Origin: an uncultured delta proteobacterium
GTDB lineage: Bacteria > Desulfobacterota > Zymogenia > Zymogenales > Zymogenaceae
Assembly: GCA_963735595.1 (NCBI GenBank)
Contig: CAVTLK010000005.1
Span: 832,001-896,000 of the forward strand
Length of the DNA: 64,000 nt
Reading direction: 5' to 3'
The notes beneath the pieces were generated by a model, which saw nothing but the letters and a program-made list of their open reading frames with translations, had not been told where the DNA came from and did not search any database. The position numbers and the translations under genes were made by a program. Within the stretch, counting starts at the first letter, position 1. Every line of letters starts with the position of its first letter. This document shows positions 46,297-54,073 of the stretch, in pieces.

Positions 46297-46995
46297 ATGC
46301 ACATCGGCGAGAGACTGGACTTACACATGGACCCTAATCGTATGGTCCCCAACGCGTATCTCTATCAGGCTCTTGCCGCGTCACGGGAACTCCTGGGCAA
46401 CGACGGCTTTGCCGCCGTGATAAAGAGGGCGGGTGTGATCCTGCCGGTAATGGGGCAGTATCTCGACGAAAATAGCTGGCCCCCGGCGGACATGGAGCTT
46501 ACAACGCCGGCCCGGCATTTTTCCGCGATCTTCCAGGCGATCGAGGAGGTCGGCGGCGGACGCGCCCAGATGGTCAATATCGGTATCAGGACCGCCCAGA
46601 TGGGCTTTGAGGGCCTGGGGCCGGCGATGAAGGCGACGCTGTCGGTCCTCAAGAAACTCCCCGGTTTCCAATGGCGGGCCGAAACGGTCCTCAAGGCGAT
46701 GGCCGATGACCTGCTGGACGCGAGCCCGGGCGACCGGGAAAGGCAGGCTATCCGTGTCGTGACCGATAAGGAGAAAGGGGCGATCCTCTTCATCGACCGA
46801 ACGGGCGATTCGTGCCATGGGAGGAACGGGGTGCACACCCCGGTATGCCACGTATACCGCGGGGGGATCATCGGCGCGGTAAAGCTCGCCACCGGGAAAG
46901 TCGCCAGGGTCGTCGAAACGGCCTGCATGGCCGCGGGAGACAACGCCTGTGTTTTCGAGGTCGGCTTCGAAGCGGAAGAAACAGACAAGGCGTAA
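46297..46995 (+). CDS. Stand-alone V4R (4VR) domain protein
   Basis: C-terminal CHG...CHVYRG...ETACMAAGDNACVFEV. Confidence 0.8.
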   Translation: MHIGERLDLHMDPNRMVPNAYLYQALAASRELLGNDGFAAVIKRAGVILPVMGQYLDENSWPPADMELTTPARHFSAIFQAIEEVGGGRAQMVNIGIRTAQMGFEGLGPAMKATLSVLKKLPGFQWRAETVLKAMADDLLDASPGDRERQAIRVVTDKEKGAILFIDRTGDSCHGRNGVHTPVCHVYRGGIIGAVKLATGKVARVVETACMAAGDNACVFEVGFEAEETDKA

Positions 46996-47093: not shown

Positions 47094-47816
47094 ATGTACG
47101 ACCGCTTGCACTTCCATCAGGATCCGAACAAGATGATACTGAACGTCTACCTTCACGGTGCCCTCCTGGCCTCAAAGGAGCTTCTCGGTGACAGCGGTTT
47201 CGCGGCAGTCATCAAGCGGGCGGAGACCTACGCCCCCGGGATGACGGCCTATCTCGACGAGCGAAACTGGCCCGCAGACGATCTAAAGTTCCAGTATCCC
47301 GCCCGGCACTACAGCGCCCTGTTCCAGGCGGTGGAAGAGGTGGGCGGCGGGAGGTCTCAGCTGGTGGCGATCGGCATCGTGACGAGCAAGTTGGGTTTCG
47401 AGGGTCTCGGGCCGTCGATGAAGGCGGCTCTGGCCGTAATGAAGAGGCTGCCGGGATACCGATGGCGGGTCGAGACGATCCTTTCGGGAATGGTCCAGGA
47501 TATGCTCAATGCCGCGCCGGAGGAGAAGCGGCTCAAAGCGATCTCACTTGAGACCGATGAGGCCCGCAGGGTATTCCGCTACGTCGATCGGAGCGGCGAC
47601 ATCTGCCACGGCAGAAACGGCGCCACGGCCCCGATTTGCCACGTCTATCGGGGAGGGTTCATCGGCGCGATAAATGGCGTTACCGGCCGTGTTCCCCACG
47701 TCCTGGAGGTGATGTGCATGGCGGCCGGGGACCCTGCCTGTGTCTTCGAAATCGATTTTGAGCCGGAGGGTGGGGGTGACGAATTGAGAGAAGGCGGAGT
47801 AGAAAATCGTGAATAG
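47094..47816 (+). CDS. Stand-alone V4R (4VR) domain protein, tandem paralog
   Basis: CHG...CHVYRG...EVMCMAAGDPACVFEI; colinear with the upstream gene. Confidence 0.8.
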   Translation: MYDRLHFHQDPNKMILNVYLHGALLASKELLGDSGFAAVIKRAETYAPGMTAYLDERNWPADDLKFQYPARHYSALFQAVEEVGGGRSQLVAIGIVTSKLGFEGLGPSMKAALAVMKRLPGYRWRVETILSGMVQDMLNAAPEEKRLKAISLETDEARRVFRYVDRSGDICHGRNGATAPICHVYRGGFIGAINGVTGRVPHVLEVMCMAAGDPACVFEIDFEPEGGGDELREGGVENRE

Positions 47817-47928: not shown

Positions 47929-49506
47929 CTATCCGAAGATCTTATCTACCTCTTTTGCGTCGATATCGCTCACCAGCGGGATGCCGCTGACCCGGGACGC
48001 CTCCGGGGTGAGCGCGGCGATGTCGTTGGTGGTGATGCGGTCGATGGCAAACTTGCGCGAGCCGGCCATGAACTGGCGCAGGCCCTGGGCGAGCCGCTCG
48101 TAATAGGTGTAGAGGCCCATGGCGCCGGTCGGTATCCGGTCGTAGTCCTTCCCGAATTTTCTCTTCAGCCCCTCGGCGGTCACGAAGACCGATTCCACGT
48201 CCTTGCCGAACCGCTCGATAAAGACGGGGGCGTCGCCGCTGTTGATCGCGTTTCCGATCGTCTTTCCCACCATGGCGGCCGCCAGCGGCGCCCGTGACAT
48301 GGCGATGGCCTTGCAGTAGGGAGCGGCGAGCGATAACCCTTTGAACATCTGGTCTTCGAGGATGAACCCGCCGGCCAGCGCGATATCAGGCACATGCTGC
48401 CCTTTCTTTGCCAGGCGGTCGCAGTAGTCCCTGGTGAGCGCCCAGAGCTCGATGGTCGGGACGCCCCATTCGTTCATCATGCGCCAGGGGCTCATGCCGG
48501 TTCCGCCGCCGGCCCCGTCAACCGTCAGGTAGTCAATCTTTGCGATGGATGAGAACTTGACCGCCCGGGCAAGGTCCACCGGCCGGTAGGCGCCGGTCTT
48601 GAGCGACACGAACTTGGCGCCGGCCTTGCGAAGCTCTTCCACGCGCGCCACGAAGCTCTCCTCGTCCACCATGCCGACCCGGGAGTGCCGCTCGAACTCC
48701 GTGAATATGCCCTTCTTGAATTCCTCGATCACGGCGGGATCGAGCGGGTCGGGCAGGACGATGTAGCCCCTCTTGGCGAGGAGCTGGGCCTTCTCGAGGC
48801 TCTTGATCTTCACCTCGCCGCCGATGTCTTTTGCGCCCTGTCCCCATTTGAGCTCAACGGCGTCCACACCGAGCTTTTCTATCGCGTACTCCTGAATCTT
48901 CAGGCGGGTGTCCTCGACGTTGGCCTGTACGACGACGGCGCCGTAGCCCTTTTCCTGCCAGTCCTTGAAGAGCTTGACGCGCCGTTTTAGCTCCGGAGAA
49001 TCAACCACCCTCCCGTTTTCGATCTTCGATTCGACGTCCATCCCGCAGACGTTCTCGCCGATGGTCAGAACCGTCCCGGTTATCGCCGAGCCGATGGCAA
49101 GCCCCTCCCAGTTGATCCCGGCGACGTTCGTCGACCCGAGGCCGCCGATAACGATCGGCAGCCGGAGTTTTATACCGCCGTTATTGCCGAGCTTCGTCTC
49201 GAGGCTGACGTTCGGGAAGATCGCCTTGTCCGAATCGGCCTCTATCCCGACGGCCCCTACGGCGGTTCCCATGATGGAAAAGTGGGAAAGGTCGATGGGG
49301 TAATCCTTCTGTGAGGCCATCGTGGAGATCCCGAAGGGCTGCGGGTAGATGACCTCGTGCCCCCGGTAGGCGCTCTTGCCGATCTCGCACATTCCGATGC
49401 AGCCGTCAACGCAGGTTACGCACATACCGCTGATGGGAGACCAGTCCCCTGCCGTCCTGTTCTTTGTGAGGGTCGCGGCCGTCGCATTATATCTCGTTAG
49501 TGTCAT
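47929..49506 (-). CDS. Stand-alone FMN-binding glutamate synthase family protein
   Basis: ELKWGQGAK, SLKTG, TVDGAGGGTGMSP, LAGG; N-terminal CVTCVDGCIGMC. Confidence 0.88.
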   Translation of the reverse strand: MTLTRYNATAATLTKNRTAGDWSPISGMCVTCVDGCIGMCEIGKSAYRGHEVIYPQPFGISTMASQKDYPIDLSHFSIMGTAVGAVGIEADSDKAIFPNVSLETKLGNNGGIKLRLPIVIGGLGSTNVAGINWEGLAIGSAITGTVLTIGENVCGMDVESKIENGRVVDSPELKRRVKLFKDWQEKGYGAVVVQANVEDTRLKIQEYAIEKLGVDAVELKWGQGAKDIGGEVKIKSLEKAQLLAKRGYIVLPDPLDPAVIEEFKKGIFTEFERHSRVGMVDEESFVARVEELRKAGAKFVSLKTGAYRPVDLARAVKFSSIAKIDYLTVDGAGGGTGMSPWRMMNEWGVPTIELWALTRDYCDRLAKKGQHVPDIALAGGFILEDQMFKGLSLAAPYCKAIAMSRAPLAAAMVGKTIGNAINSGDAPVFIERFGKDVESVFVTAEGLKRKFGKDYDRIPTGAMGLYTYYERLAQGLRQFMAGSRKFAIDRITTNDIAALTPEASRVSGIPLVSDIDAKEVDKIFG

Positions 49507-49557
49507 TCTTCACTCCTCTTCTCGTATCGGTTTGTCTATGTATTTAAATTAGTTCCG

Positions 49558-50223
49558 CTAATATGCCCGGTGCCCTTTGGCGGTCACGCTCTCCGAGCAG
49601 TGTACGCAGATCTCGCAGGTCTCCACGTGAACCAGGTTCTGGCATCCCCCGCAGAGGCCGTCCTTGAGGTTTCCCGCGGTACAGGCCCGCTCGCACACGG
49701 GGCAGATCCACTCGCAACCCCCGCAGTTACGGCATTCCTGGGGTGTGACCCCGAAGGCAGTGCCGACCTTCCGTGACGTGCCGCGCCCCACGAAGCCGAT
49801 GCCGCCCGACTGCATCTGTTCCTTACAGAAACGGACGCACTGCCCGCACAGGATGCAGTTCTTATCCTTTATCGTAAAGCGGATCTTATTGACGCCGTAG
49901 TTGGCGGCCAGGTCCTGCAGTGTCTTGGAGGTAGGGCAGGTCGAGACGAGCAGCTCGATGAGGACCTTCCTGGCCTTTCTTACCCGTTCGGAATTCGTGA
50001 GGATCTCCATACCCTCTGAGGCCGGCAGCGCGCAGGAGGCCTCGAGCGTCGAGCGGCTGCCTTTTTTCATCTCGACGACGCACACCCGGCATGCCCCGTA
50101 GGGCGTGAGGCCGGGATTGTGGCAGAGAGTGGGTATTGCGATCCCGAGGTTCCGCGCGGCCTCCAGCACCGTCGTCCCTCCGGCAACTTCGGTTGGAATC
50201 CCGTCTATGCTTAGTTTAGGCAT
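49558..50223 (-). CDS. Short NuoG/HydA-N-terminal-like Fe-S protein ([2Fe-2S] + 2x[4Fe-4S] + Cys-rich tail)
   Basis: IPTLC...GACRVC...ASC; CILCGQCVRFC; CRNCGGCEWICP; no H-cluster or Mo/W domain. Confidence 0.88.
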   Translation of the reverse strand: MPKLSIDGIPTEVAGGTTVLEAARNLGIAIPTLCHNPGLTPYGACRVCVVEMKKGSRSTLEASCALPASEGMEILTNSERVRKARKVLIELLVSTCPTSKTLQDLAANYGVNKIRFTIKDKNCILCGQCVRFCKEQMQSGGIGFVGRGTSRKVGTAFGVTPQECRNCGGCEWICPVCERACTAGNLKDGLCGGCQNLVHVETCEICVHCSESVTAKGHRAY

Positions 50224-50236
50224 TGTCTATCCTTTT

Positions 50237-52099
50237 TTATGCAACGATGACCGCATCGAATTTACAGTTTTCCCGGCAGAGGCCGCATTTAATGCACGCG
50301 CTTTGATCGACCACGTGAACTTCCTTCTTTTTACCGGTGATCGCCTTTTCGGGGCAGTTCTTGGCGCACACCATGCAGCCGGTGCATTTTTCTTTGTCGA
50401 TCGTGTAGGTGATGAGGGCCTTGCAGACCCCCGCCGGGCAGCGATGCTGCCCGATATGCGCCTCGTACTCGTCCCGGAAATACCGTATGGTAGAGAGAAC
50501 CGGGTTTCCGGCGGTGCCCCCCAGGGCACACAGGGACGTTTCCTTGATGACGTCGGCCAGCTCCTCCAGGAGCTCGATATCGCCGCTCTTTCCGTTTCCC
50601 CCGGTGATGCCGGCGAGGATGTCGTTCATCCGGTCAAGACCCTCCCTGCAGGGGAGGCACTTGCCGCACGACTCCTCGGTGAGGAAGTTCACAAAGTATT
50701 TAGCCGTATCCACCATACAGGTGGATTCGTCCATAACGATCATGCCGCCCGAGCCCATCATCGAGCCGACGCGGGAGAGCTCGTCGAAATCGACGGGCAG
50801 ATCGAGAAGGTTTTCGGGAATACACCCTCCCGACGGCCCCCCGGTCTGGACGGCCTTGAACTTCTTGCCGTTCAAGAGGCCGCCGCCGATATCGTAGATA
50901 ATCTCACGCAGCGTAATGCCCATCGGCACCTCAACGAGGCCGGTATTCCTGATCTTGCCGACCAGCGAGAATATCTTGGTGCCCTTGCTGCCGGCGGTGC
51001 CAATATCCGCGTACCATCCCGCCCCCTTGTTGATGATCAGCGGGACGTTAGCCCACGTCTCGACGTTGTTGAGGTTGGAGGGCTTATTGTGGAGCCCCTT
51101 GACGACGGTATGGATATGTTTCTGGCGGGGCTCCCCGATCTTTCCCTCCAGGGAGGCCATGAGGGCGGTGGATTCTCCGCAGACGAACGCCCCTCCGCCC
51201 CTGGCGATCACGACGTCGAAGTCGAAGCCGGAGCCGAGTATATCGGCTCCGAGCAGGCCGTATCCCCGCGCCTGATCGAGGGCAACGCGCAGGTTCTTGA
51301 CGGCCAGGGGATATTCGTGCCGCACGTAGACGTAGCCGTGCGCGCTGCCGATGGCGTACGCCCCGATGATCATGCCTTCCAGAACGCTGTGCGGGTTTCC
51401 CTCCAAGAGGCTCCTGTCCATATAGGCGCCGGGGTCCCCCTCGTCGGCGTTGCAGATGACGTAGCGGGTCCCGTTTGACGTTGGGGCATTGCGGCATGAC
51501 TCCCACTTGTCGCCCGTCGGGAAGCCTCCCCCGCCGCGGCCCCGCAGGCCCGATTCCTTTATCTCCCGGATGACCTGCTCCGGCTTCATCTCGAACAGGG
51601 CCGTGGGGAGGGCGGAATACCCGCCCAACGCGATGTAATCTTCGATACTGGTAGGATCCAGGAGGCCGTTGCTGCCGAATATGAGCCGCCGCTGTTTCTT
51701 GTAAAACGGTACGTCGTGTTCGTGCTGCACGGTTTGTCCCGAGTCCGAATCGGAATAGAGGAGACGATCGATAACGACTCCTTTACCGATGGTCTCCGTG
51801 AGTATTTCGGCAACGTCCTGTGGATTTACCCGGGTGTAGAATGTTTCCTGGGGGTGTATGGTGACAAGCGTCCCGTATTCACATAGACCGTGGCAGCCGG
51901 TGAGTTTCAGTCCGACCCGGTCGGCCATCTTCAGGCGGTCGATTTCATCGAGAAATGCGGCATGAACGAGTTCGCACCCGCACCCATGACAGCCCGTTCC
52001 GCCGCATACGCTTATCGTGGGTTTCTCTGACCGACTATCCTGCACGAGCTGTTTTTGCAGCCCTTTCAGGTCATCCGGTGATTGGAGCTTCTTTATCAT
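50237..52099 (-). CDS. NuoF/HydB-like NADH/FMN-binding subunit, long form
   Basis: N-terminal CGGTGC..GCHGLC, GLRGRGGGGFP, NADEGDPGAYMDR, GGPSGG, ESCGKCLPCREG, C-terminal 2x[4Fe-4S]. Confidence 0.93.
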   Translation of the reverse strand: MIKKLQSPDDLKGLQKQLVQDSRSEKPTISVCGGTGCHGCGCELVHAAFLDEIDRLKMADRVGLKLTGCHGLCEYGTLVTIHPQETFYTRVNPQDVAEILTETIGKGVVIDRLLYSDSDSGQTVQHEHDVPFYKKQRRLIFGSNGLLDPTSIEDYIALGGYSALPTALFEMKPEQVIREIKESGLRGRGGGGFPTGDKWESCRNAPTSNGTRYVICNADEGDPGAYMDRSLLEGNPHSVLEGMIIGAYAIGSAHGYVYVRHEYPLAVKNLRVALDQARGYGLLGADILGSGFDFDVVIARGGGAFVCGESTALMASLEGKIGEPRQKHIHTVVKGLHNKPSNLNNVETWANVPLIINKGAGWYADIGTAGSKGTKIFSLVGKIRNTGLVEVPMGITLREIIYDIGGGLLNGKKFKAVQTGGPSGGCIPENLLDLPVDFDELSRVGSMMGSGGMIVMDESTCMVDTAKYFVNFLTEESCGKCLPCREGLDRMNDILAGITGGNGKSGDIELLEELADVIKETSLCALGGTAGNPVLSTIRYFRDEYEAHIGQHRCPAGVCKALITYTIDKEKCTGCMVCAKNCPEKAITGKKKEVHVVDQSACIKCGLCRENCKFDAVIVA

Positions 52100-52611
52100 T
52101 TTGCGGACCTCGTCGCATCCTTCCTGTATTCGTCCAGGAGCTTCTTGATTTTTCCTGAGCTCATCTTCGCGTGATATCGTCCGTCCACGACGACCACCGG
52201 GCCGAGGGCGCAGGCCCCGAGGCAGTTGACGCTTTCCAGGGAAAACAGACCATCGGCGGTGGTACTACCGTTTCCAATTCCAAGTTGCCGCTCCATTTCC
52301 TCCAGCACCGACCTTCCGCCCCTCACGTGGCAGGCCGTCCCCAGGCACACGGTTACGGTGTGTTTACCCCGGGGGGTGAGGCTGAAGGCTTTGAAGAACG
52401 TCGCAACGCCGTATACCTGGATGAGGGAAAGGTTAAGCTTGCCCGCGACCTGCTTCAGGGCCGCCTCCGGCAGGTAACGATACTGGGCCTGGATATCCTG
52501 GAGTATCGCGATGAGGTTGTCCGGCGTTGCCTCGTAGTCGCCAATAACCCGCGTTACGAAATCCGCGGTCTGGCTTGCGTCATCTGCTCTGCTCATTAGG
52601 TTTTCCGCCAT
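52096..52611 (-). CDS. NuoE/HydC-like [2Fe-2S] subunit
   Basis: YGVATFF, CLGTACHVRG, CLGACALGP; overlaps the next gene by ATGA. Confidence 0.93.
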   Translation of the reverse strand: MAENLMSRADDASQTADFVTRVIGDYEATPDNLIAILQDIQAQYRYLPEAALKQVAGKLNLSLIQVYGVATFFKAFSLTPRGKHTVTVCLGTACHVRGGRSVLEEMERQLGIGNGSTTADGLFSLESVNCLGACALGPVVVVDGRYHAKMSSGKIKKLLDEYRKDATRSAK

Positions 52612-52755
52612 TTCGGTTTACTTATTTGAAGTGTTTTACGCGTATATCGAGCTTTGCGGTTCCTGCCTGCCGGTATATCCTATCAATTGACGATAATCAG
52701 ATTCGCGCGTGTCTGTAGAGATACCGTGCATGTCGGTCAATGGAGTTCTATGATC

Positions 52756-53052
52756 GGCAATCGATTGCCAATATTTCATACCGGTGACGGCCTGTCAAGA
52801 ACAAAATGCATAAGAGTATTAAATAATTACCTTATCATGACGAATTGTTGATGCGGTAATTATACCGTAAAAATTGATAATATCGGCAAACATGCCGTAT
52901 CATTACCGCAGTGCGAGGCGGAACGGATGAAATACGAAGGGAAACTGTCCGTTATCAGTGGGAATTCCCATAACCCGTCGCTCAAAAACGACTTAGGTAC
53001 CGGCAATACTGCCGATAATGCCCTTGACTACCGGTAAATTTTCCGGTACCGT
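52756..53052. promoter_or_regulatory. Divergent promoter region with repeated palindromic operators (putative NrpR sites)
   Basis: CGGYA-N4-TDCCG at 52854, 52884, 53001, 53032; GGCAATCGATTGCC at 52756; TTGACT-17-TACCGT (+) and TTGACA at 52798 (-). Confidence 0.75.
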
Positions 53053-53059
53053 TATATAC

Positions 53060-54073
53060 ATGAGCGAAAAAATGGAAAAGAAGAGACTTGCAGTCCTCCG
53101 GTTTCTGGCAGATTCCGACGGCCCCCAGTCGAGCCCCGCAATCGCCGAGCATCTGACGGCCTCCGGCCATGAGATGAGCGAGAGGACGATCCGCCTCTAT
53201 CTCCAGGAACTGGATGAAGAGGCGCTCACCGAAAACCACGGCAAGCGGGGCAGGACGATCACGGAGAAGGGGAAAGCCGAGTTGGCAAATGCCCGTGTTT
53301 ACGATAAGGTGGGGTATCTGGCGGCAAAGATAGACCGGATGATGTACCGGATGACTTTCAACCTCCGGGAGAGGGCGGGCACCGTCGTTATAAACCTCAG
53401 CATCATTTCGAAAGACATGCTGGCCACCGCCGTTCCGCTTCTTTCGAGCGTCTTTCAGGCGGGTTACTCGATGGGCAGTCTCGTCGGTTTATTCGGCCCT
53501 GGAGAGCGAATCGGGGAAGTGACCATTCCACAGGACGCCGTGGGTATCGGCACGGTCTGCTCGGTTACGGTCAACGGTGTGCTGCTTTCCGAGGGGATAC
53601 CGACGGTCTCCCGGTTCGGGGGTCTCCTGGAAATCAGGAGCGGTAAATATACCCGTTTCGTGGAGCTGATCCACTACGAGGGGACGACGCTTGACCCCCT
53701 CGAGGTCTTCATCCGCAGCCGCATGACCGACTATTTCGGCGCCACGACAACCGGAAGTGGAAGGATCGGCGCGAGTTTTCGGGAGGTCCCGGCCGAGAGC
53801 CGCGCCAGCGTTATCGATATATCGGAGCGGCTGGAACAGGCCGGCTTGAGCGGTTTCATCTCAATCGGGTGGCCGGGCCAGCCCCTCATGGAGATACCCG
53901 TCGGGGACGGGAGGATCGGCATCGTCGTTATCGGGGGTCTCAATCCCGTGGCGATCCTCGAGGAAAAGGGCATCCACGTCCAATTCACCGGGGCTCTGGC
54001 GGGTTTGCTGGACTACGGAGCGCTCTACCACTACCGGGAGATGGAGGACAGGGCCGGCGCGCTGTTACGATAG
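53060..54073 (+). CDS. nrpR: NrpR family nitrogen repressor (wHTH + single NRD/DUF128 domain)
   Basis: N-terminal SERTIRLYLQELD..GRTITEKG; GTVVINLS, GTVCSVTVNG, GTTLDPLEVFI, GGLNPVA. Confidence 0.88.
   Translation: MSEKMEKKRLAVLRFLADSDGPQSSPAIAEHLTASGHEMSERTIRLYLQELDEEALTENHGKRGRTITEKGKAELANARVYDKVGYLAAKIDRMMYRMTFNLRERAGTVVINLSIISKDMLATAVPLLSSVFQAGYSMGSLVGLFGPGERIGEVTIPQDAVGIGTVCSVTVNGVLLSEGIPTVSRFGGLLEIRSGKYTRFVELIHYEGTTLDPLEVFIRSRMTDYFGATTTGSGRIGASFREVPAESRASVIDISERLEQAGLSGFISIGWPGQPLMEIPVGDGRIGIVVIGGLNPVAILEEKGIHVQFTGALAGLLDYGALYHYREMEDRAGALLR

Follow-up and report, generated by a model that had tools for sequence, protein, structure and literature searches.

The chemistries so far linked with electron bifurcation are those of hydrogen, carbon and quinones. 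The survey of the Bfu enzymes leaves 17-18 clades unassigned and, in its available portions, lists no amino-acid or nitrogen substrate (PMC9304861), while methanogen NrpR is characterized, in the accessible part of PMC9765008, as a 2-oxoglutarate-dependent repressor of nitrogen genes. Components of both systems stand side by side in the window, a 64,000-nucleotide stretch of contig CAVTLK010000005.1 from an uncultured member of the Zymogenaceae, where an operon for a Bfu-type electron module (BfuCBA) and a 525-residue protein related to the flavin mononucleotide (FMN) domain of glutamate synthase (glt) diverges from an nrpR homologue. From its sequence, this cassette is apparently an undescribed, conserved variant of the Type 2 Bfu enzymes with a candidate nitrogen-repressor operator. 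The explanation placed foremost, tentatively and at a little below an even chance, is that it uses NADH plus ferredoxin to drive amination of 2-oxoglutarate with free ammonium.

The electron module and its proposed catalytic partner

A preliminary description had placed four co-oriented minus-strand genes ahead of a single terminator and divergent from nrpR, and all of these reading frames were recovered where it put them; only the nrpR start, given there as 53018, is most likely at 53060, matching the starts of its homologues (337 amino acids). The features of the locus, in window coordinates, are:

53060..54073, plus strand: nrpR homologue (winged helix and single NRD domain), 337 amino acids
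52854..53045, no strand: four CGG(C/T/A)A-N4-T(G/A/T)CCG palindromes with the same half-site (52854, 52884, 53001, 53032)
52770..52798, minus strand: sigma-70-type promoter TTGACA-17-AATATT with extended TG, kept in loci L014 and L146 (loci of other genomes are numbered with L)
52756..52769, no strand: GGCA-N6-TGCC palindrome directly behind the -10 box, candidate NrpR operator
52096..52611, minus strand: bfuC (NuoE/HydC-like; [2Fe-2S] cluster C1; PF01257), 171 amino acids
50237..52099, minus strand: bfuB (NuoF/HydB-like; FMN/NADH site; B1-B5 ligands), 620 amino acids
49558..50223, minus strand: bfuA, Type 2 (A1, A2, A4; His-ligated A3 absent), 221 amino acids
47929..49506, minus strand: glt, divergent glutamate-synthase-type FMN-domain protein, 525 amino acids
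47872..47908, minus strand: intrinsic-terminator-like hairpin and U-run, between glt and a converging V4R gene

The genes bfuC, bfuB, bfuA and glt are separated by a 4-base overlap, then 13 and then 51 bases, and the hairpin that follows glt is more stable than any of 200 shuffles (0/200; z -3.8). Two tandem V4R-domain proteins (46297-46995 and 47094-47816, plus strand) converge on this terminator; three further V4R-like small reading frames follow the canonical glutamate synthase operon of the genome (L010:13865-15816), and one lies near the L145 locus.

Measured against the criteria in Schut et al. 2022 (PMC9304861, available portions), BfuB carries the FMN/NADH, SLBB, B1 and 2[4Fe-4S] domains of a Bfu enzyme and is accompanied by BfuC. 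BfuB combines PF01512, PF10531, PF10589 and Fer4 with PF01257 at its N-terminus, and keeps B1, two ferredoxin motifs and ligands for all five iron-sulfur (Fe-S) clusters. Its B2 ligands C461, T499, H548, C554 and C559 align with C438, C476, H525, C531 and C536 of 7t2r_B, and the N-terminal B5 [2Fe-2S] ligands C32, C37, C69 and C73 are present, a set of four cysteines found in just 27 of 68 BfuB relatives. A225-x-M227 matches A202 and M204 of the A. mobile enzyme. As for F182 of that enzyme, counting along 7t2r_B gives a residue other than Phe at 182, and a nearby Phe aligns with S201 of BfuB, as in bifurcating WorB. The best solved relatives of BfuB and BfuA are 9mqx_B (E 7.5e-232) and 9mqx_A (E 1.7e-36), respectively. 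BfuA, noted earlier as a NuoG-like protein without a catalytic domain, indeed gives Fer2_4 and Fer4 alone in the domain search; its layout is that of Type 2, with A1, A2 and A4 and without A3, which needs an added catalytic subunit. A cassette-specific, Cys-rich tail (C177, 181, 191, 194, 203, 206) is kept in 72-74 of 74 rows. Judged by its ligands, the electron module is an intact Bfu-type core with every cluster ligand of the bifurcating version. Translated reading frames also reveal two other Bfu-type modules in the genome (L013:7472-13876 and L011:4942-11756), the neighbours being pyruvate-oxidoreductase-like genes in one case and formate-dehydrogenase-like genes in the other.

The predicted catalytic partner comes from a sizeable and strongly conserved family, with at least 8000 scored clusters, that has been named only by likeness, its Atlas entries carrying automatic glutamate-synthase labels alone. 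Its sole Pfam match is PF01645 (41.8 bits, residues 279-395), the NCBIfam search assigned no family, and a sequence search of solved structures returned nothing significant. Its profile hit designed TIM barrels through a short repeat, with GltB at E 0.9 only, and profile comparison with 21 canonical GltB/GltB2 domains gave 98.8% at 23% identity. Residues were placed on A. brasilense numbering by way of the GltB2 of the same genome and counted by hand. S125, E151, Q194, K220, Q223 and K226 correspond to S859, E886, Q909, K931, Q934 and K937, and G229-G230, K303 and T336-G337 to G941-G942, K999 and T1030-G1031, which we take to be FMN- and 2-oxoglutarate-site positions. These positions are kept in 111-121 of 123 rows and in 12/12 stand-alone homologues, and R246 sits 20 residues past K226, as R957 does past K937. 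The 3Fe-4S cysteine motif is absent (two or more Cys in the region in 1/123 rows), and an N-terminal CxxCxxxCxxxC motif (residues 29-40; C29/32/36/40), a probable Fe-S centre, is nearly invariant across the 123 rows. Because the 3Fe-4S motif is lost and the four-Cys motif is new, the protein falls outside the glutamate synthases, yet it probably works like their synthase site, whose mechanism is described in PMC8097209. Geobacter GSU1239 (PMC2725144, consulted portions) was not taken as a family member, being set apart by its context in a canonical-type operon rather than by sequence. Distant stand-alone homologues (39% identity; L167:8001-9521 and L168:7989-9551), from cultured Peptoclostridium acidaminophilum (WP_025436739.1) and Acetoanaerobium noterae, keep the four cysteines and lack R246.

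The window itself lacks genes for the glutamine amidotransferase (GATase), GXGXG and GltD, as first described: tblastn with queries for each of these domains, and with pyridine-nucleotide reductase, found no match there. That absence does not extend to the genome, which is 93% complete and encodes a full split glutamate synthase at C5:653-659 kb, 225 kb from the operon, comprising GltB2, ferredoxin, pyridine-nucleotide reductase, GATase and GXGXG. The cassette was therefore rejected as the genome's glutamate synthase.

The divergent nrpR gene and candidate operators

The NrpR homologue (PF01995, 264 bits, with HTH_12) matches MJ0159 (3nek, E 4e-26), and its gene is the only PF01995 gene in the assembly. 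Directly after the operon promoter stands GGCAATCGATTGCC, a palindrome that is the probable NrpR operator candidate. The archaeal operator consensus is GGAAN6TTCC (PMC2723118, available text). A pattern derived from the window and that consensus, GG(C/A)A-N6-T(G/T)CC, occurs in all 11 nrpR-divergent spacers, the window included and nine of them close kin, with 0.01-0.06 expected in each by shuffling; it lies directly behind a promoter match in nine of the 11, and in a tenth by eye. Among Chloroflexota such a site precedes nrpR in three of four nrpR-bearing loci, and L048 carries the exact archaeal consensus behind the promoter that heads nrpR-hisF-gdh-bfuCBA-glt. No operator-type site was seen at the operons of L015, L016 and L019. 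Scanning the genome for promoter plus site gave 12 matches, and a wide NrpR regulon was rejected, there being no exact site upstream of either amtB or the operon for canonical glutamate synthase.

Sigma-54 promoters follow a spacing rule from GG to GC. The palindrome was ruled out as such a promoter, having 9 bases between GG and GC versus 10 at amtB. The amtB gene (G000 C2:853970-854000 and upstream) has a sigma-54-type site, and the sigma-54 activator gene before it is seemingly broken into several frames in this assembly. The N4-spaced palindromes are the genome's only cluster of at least three such sites within 350 bases, and the last two flank a TTGAC box ahead of nrpR. That gene is seemingly leaderless (53024-53062): the TTGAC box is followed by 17 bases with an N4 palindrome, a weak -10 and, 7 bases on, ATG, an arrangement clearer in L014 and L128.

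Distribution, modularity and history of the cassette

Linkage was assessed in the best 80 of 592 confirmed matches (66-92% identity). Where upstream DNA was sufficient, in 66 loci, the order C-B-A-glt was kept throughout, with inserted genes in a few; bfuA is the immediate 5' neighbour of glt in 77 of the 80, and the other three have fewer than 300 bases upstream. Hosts include Chloroflexota, Planctomycetota, Acidobacteriota, Bacillota, Bacteroidota, Zixibacteria, Aminicenantes and archaea, and the closest named relative is a Candidatus Zymogenaceae locus (L014, 92%). Neighbours in the 80 loci include gdh-type genes (15), glnA (7), hisF (7) and nrpR (7), and no GATase or GXGXG match was found in any of them. 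In Dehalococcoidia a hisF-type cyclase lies directly before bfuC or beside nrpR (L019, L020, L021, L023, L046, L048, L072). Elsewhere a small Cys-rich reading frame (about 100 amino acids, CxxC motifs) or a BfuC extension lies just 5' of bfuC (L035, L051, L055, L057, L059 and others), following a sigma-54 two-component pair; in L055 it has no Pfam family. A second paralogue of the stand-alone clade, 47% identical, follows the cassette at L018:12183-13781.

Of 41 genomes picked by kinship, 24 carry the 525-residue family whole or in part, and 20 of their loci resolve into three cassettes, two with Bfu genes otherwise arranged, two cut by contig ends and 13 stand-alone genes. The linkage to a Bfu module is conserved across many phyla, and the catalytic gene also occurs without one. 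Apart from E283, the 20 motif residues tested are all present in 12/12 stand-alone copies (frameshifted L145 excluded). Such copies adjoin nrpR (8/13), GAF-sigma-54 activators, GAF-ANTAR proteins, glnA, nadE or carB.

Quick trees suggest how the two arrangements are related. Cassette and stand-alone catalytic proteins separate, and the window's catalytic gene falls with cassettes of Chloroflexota, Planctomycetota and Actinomycetota; the window NrpR nests with that of family members having the stand-alone gene (83% to L128), with which the window shares synteny, between hydrolase and patatin genes. A single group of the eight family catalytic copies was rejected (p-AU 2e-86, 25 rows); the eight-copy group was set by kinship after the first tree had been seen, L014 being counted as family by similarity and naming. 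The simplest reading would be that a cassette took the place of a stand-alone gene while the regulator stayed, and such a replacement in the NrpR slot suggests that the two do an equivalent job.

Whether the canonical partners are needed was addressed through genome content. Of the 80 cassette genomes, whose completeness is not given, 27 gave a match to the canonical FMN domain (E<=1e-40) and 53 did not; canonical glutamate synthase was present in 20 of the 24 carriers of the kin sample. Five carriers without the canonical FMN domain, picked for long contigs (L055 being a single 3.83-Mb chromosome record), gave no GXGXG and no GltB1-type glutaminase match, the GltB1 query returning only weak matches in frames of 587-682 amino acids. 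To judge by these genomes, the cassette is independent of canonical glutaminase and GXGXG partners in several hosts. Glutamate dehydrogenase occurs in 5/24 carriers versus 10/17 non-carriers (p 0.02; p 0.09 with one genome per family), which is only a hint of complementarity. No glutamine synthetase gene was found in the assembly; all nine family relatives (9/9) have glnA, so its loss was rejected as real and is probably an assembly gap. The only ELFV-dehydrogenase of the assembly is about 30% identical to glutamate dehydrogenase queries (L094).

Proposed reaction, alternatives and known systems

With dG0' taken as -30 to -36 kJ/mol, the amination of 2-oxoglutarate would stall at about 0.1-12 mM ammonium with NADH alone and at about 0.02-2.4 uM with NADH plus ferredoxin, the latter much as with NADPH; on the same figures the 2-oxoglutarate/ammonium couple lies between NADH and ferredoxin at sub-millimolar ammonium. 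A couple of such intermediate potential fits a Bfu reaction in the reductive direction, and would explain a GltD-type (NADPH) module as a substitute. The foremost explanation is that the operon encodes a Bfu enzyme of Type 2, in which the glutamate-synthase-like FMN protein handles the third substrate. From its cofactor ligands, BfuBC would accept one electron pair from NADH and another from reduced ferredoxin, and BfuA would pass them through A1-A2-A4 and its Cys-rich tail to the C29/32/36/40 centre and then to FMN. The conserved positions and genetic context suggest that reduced FMN reduces the imine of 2-oxoglutarate and free ammonium to glutamate. If the regulator binds and responds as methanogen NrpR does, it would repress the promoter until nitrogen shortage raises 2-oxoglutarate.

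A number of observations weigh against this proposal. Identity to canonical domains is 23-27%, loop 231-282 is remodelled, the R957 equivalent is R246 in one alignment and shifted in another, and T336 is kept in just 12 of 22 distant representatives. The FMN of canonical glutamate synthase has a potential of -240 to -270 mV (PMC8097209, available text), and a similar potential in the cassette enzyme would be too high for efficient use of a -390 mV donor. The 80 best-scoring loci describe the linkage of one clade, and the catalytic gene stands without a Bfu module in 13/20 loci of phylum relatives, in whose stand-alone genomes the C-terminal part of BfuA finds only a generic ferredoxin stretch. 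Among the 68 BfuB relatives 33 are short and 35 have a GltD-type domain in place of the B3/B4 ferredoxin domain, and the 33 short forms keep both ferredoxin motifs in 32 and the four B5 cysteines in 20 only. The apparent replacement of a stand-alone gene in the same NrpR slot speaks against a fixed complex. All five long-contig carriers have glutamate dehydrogenase and glutamine synthetase, which leaves no obvious need there for a further ammonium route. As to the regulation by nitrogen proposed at the outset, it gains from the palindrome in 11/11 spacers and loses from the rarity of nrpR, which lies close to just 7 of the 80 nearest cassettes, and from an exact-site scan that found no such operator at amtB or the canonical glutamate synthase operon.

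Some of these points fit other explanations. Because stand-alone, short-BfuB and GltD-type forms all exist, the reductant input of the family is to all appearances modular, the window holding the complete bifurcating-type version. The same forms, the cassette's position in the slot of a stand-alone gene and the lack of the four-Cys B5 motif in 13/33 short BfuB would suit ammonium amination without obligatory bifurcation, in which the module is one interchangeable supplier of reductant (NADH alone, ferredoxin alone, or loosely associated). This account is unlikely, although a serious contender; the window BfuB keeps all cluster ligands and A-x-M, and is closest to bifurcating WorB. Amine exchange occurs in N-methylglutamate synthase. 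The FMN subunit might likewise act on another 2-oxo acid or amine, by amine exchange or through another imine, or serve as a 2-oxoglutarate-binding redox sensor. The low identity, altered loop and uncertain R957 equivalent would be expected on that account, as would the coexistence of canonical glutamate synthase in most carriers of the kin sample and the loss of S125/R246 in distant clostridial homologues; it is nevertheless rather improbable, given that K226, E151, T336-G337 and K303 are kept and that neighbours and regulators are repeatedly those of glutamate and ammonium genes.

Two further possibilities have each a small chance. A glutamine-dependent glutamate synthase could borrow a glutaminase encoded elsewhere, and the genome does hold a GltB1-type glutaminase, with glutamine synthetase present in most carriers and glnA often adjoining; however, neither GATase nor GXGXG was matched in the 80 loci, GXGXG was found in 0/5 well-assembled carriers and GltB1 matches there were weak, in searches that did not extend to unrelated glutaminases. 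The enzyme could also run oxidatively, deaminating glutamate to supply ammonium to glutamine synthetase, HisF or CarB, or in amino-acid fermentation. Ammonia-accepting neighbours (hisF in 7/80, carB in L136, glnA) and homologues in amino-acid fermenters are consistent with this direction, but with NAD and ferredoxin as joint acceptors (-390 mV) it would need ammonium below about 0.02-2.4 uM on the same dG0', and an NrpR-type site implies induction at high 2-oxoglutarate. The preliminary description had left reductive amination and glutamate oxidation as alternatives; with an intact Bfu core oxidation is thermodynamically disfavoured, and the two are not equally likely.

If amination driven by NADH plus ferredoxin is correct, the ferredoxin pool would be linked directly to nitrogen assimilation, the ATP of glutamine synthetase would be saved at low ammonium, and a family annotated only by likeness to glutamate synthase would gain a function. 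A broader proposal, which is doubtful though worth stating, is that the family provides a third ammonium-assimilation route beside glutamate dehydrogenase and the glutamine synthetase-glutamate synthase pathway: a glutaminase-free, ATP-independent flavoenzyme, in its window form merging electrons of NADH and ferredoxin, that converts micromolar ammonium to glutamate, occurs widely among energy-limited anaerobic bacteria and in some archaea, and is under nitrogen-repressor control. With the stand-alone homologues the chemistry could be tested on one gene, and with the operator the action of NrpR in bacteria could be tested directly. In line with the earlier remark that no characterized enzyme of this composition is known, none was found in the literature searched, from which subscription papers were mostly absent; no description of the complex appears there, including the available portions of PMC11406978, PMC7325909, PMC5736913, PMC6046458, PMC13689815 and PMC2725144. 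By text search the word 'glutamate' is absent from the main text of PMC9304861, whose supplementary tables may list the cluster.

Among known systems, WorABCSL of Acetomicrobium mobile (a Type 2 Bfu enzyme; PDB 9MQX; PMC12318220, available portions) is the solved structure closest to BfuB as well as to BfuA, and shares with the cassette a short A subunit without A3 and a C-terminal extension of A beside the added catalytic module. It differs in its partner, which is the tungsten protein WorSL rather than an FMN glutamate-synthase-like protein; the cassette also lacks a WorS-type ferredoxin subunit, and its A tail bears six conserved cysteines. The synthase domain of GltB and the split archaeal-type GltB2 (PDB 1EA0, 2VDC; PMC8097209, available text) have a homologous FMN domain, most of whose FMN and 2-oxoglutarate positions are kept, whereas the 525-residue protein has no glutaminase, no central or beta-helix partner and no 3Fe-4S motif, and has instead a new four-Cys motif, a remodelled loop and another electron input. 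NAD(P)-dependent glutamate dehydrogenase catalyses the net reaction proposed for the cassette, but with an unrelated fold and cofactor, and without Fe-S wiring or ferredoxin input. Finally, NrpR of Methanococcus maripaludis (PMC2723118 and PMC9765008, accessible parts) is a homologous regulator with a related palindrome behind a nitrogen-gene promoter; the window NrpR is bacterial, has a single NRD domain, a sigma-70 promoter and a GGCA-N6-TGCC variant with additional N4-spaced sites, and appears to be local, apparently regulating neither amtB nor the canonical glutamate synthase operon.

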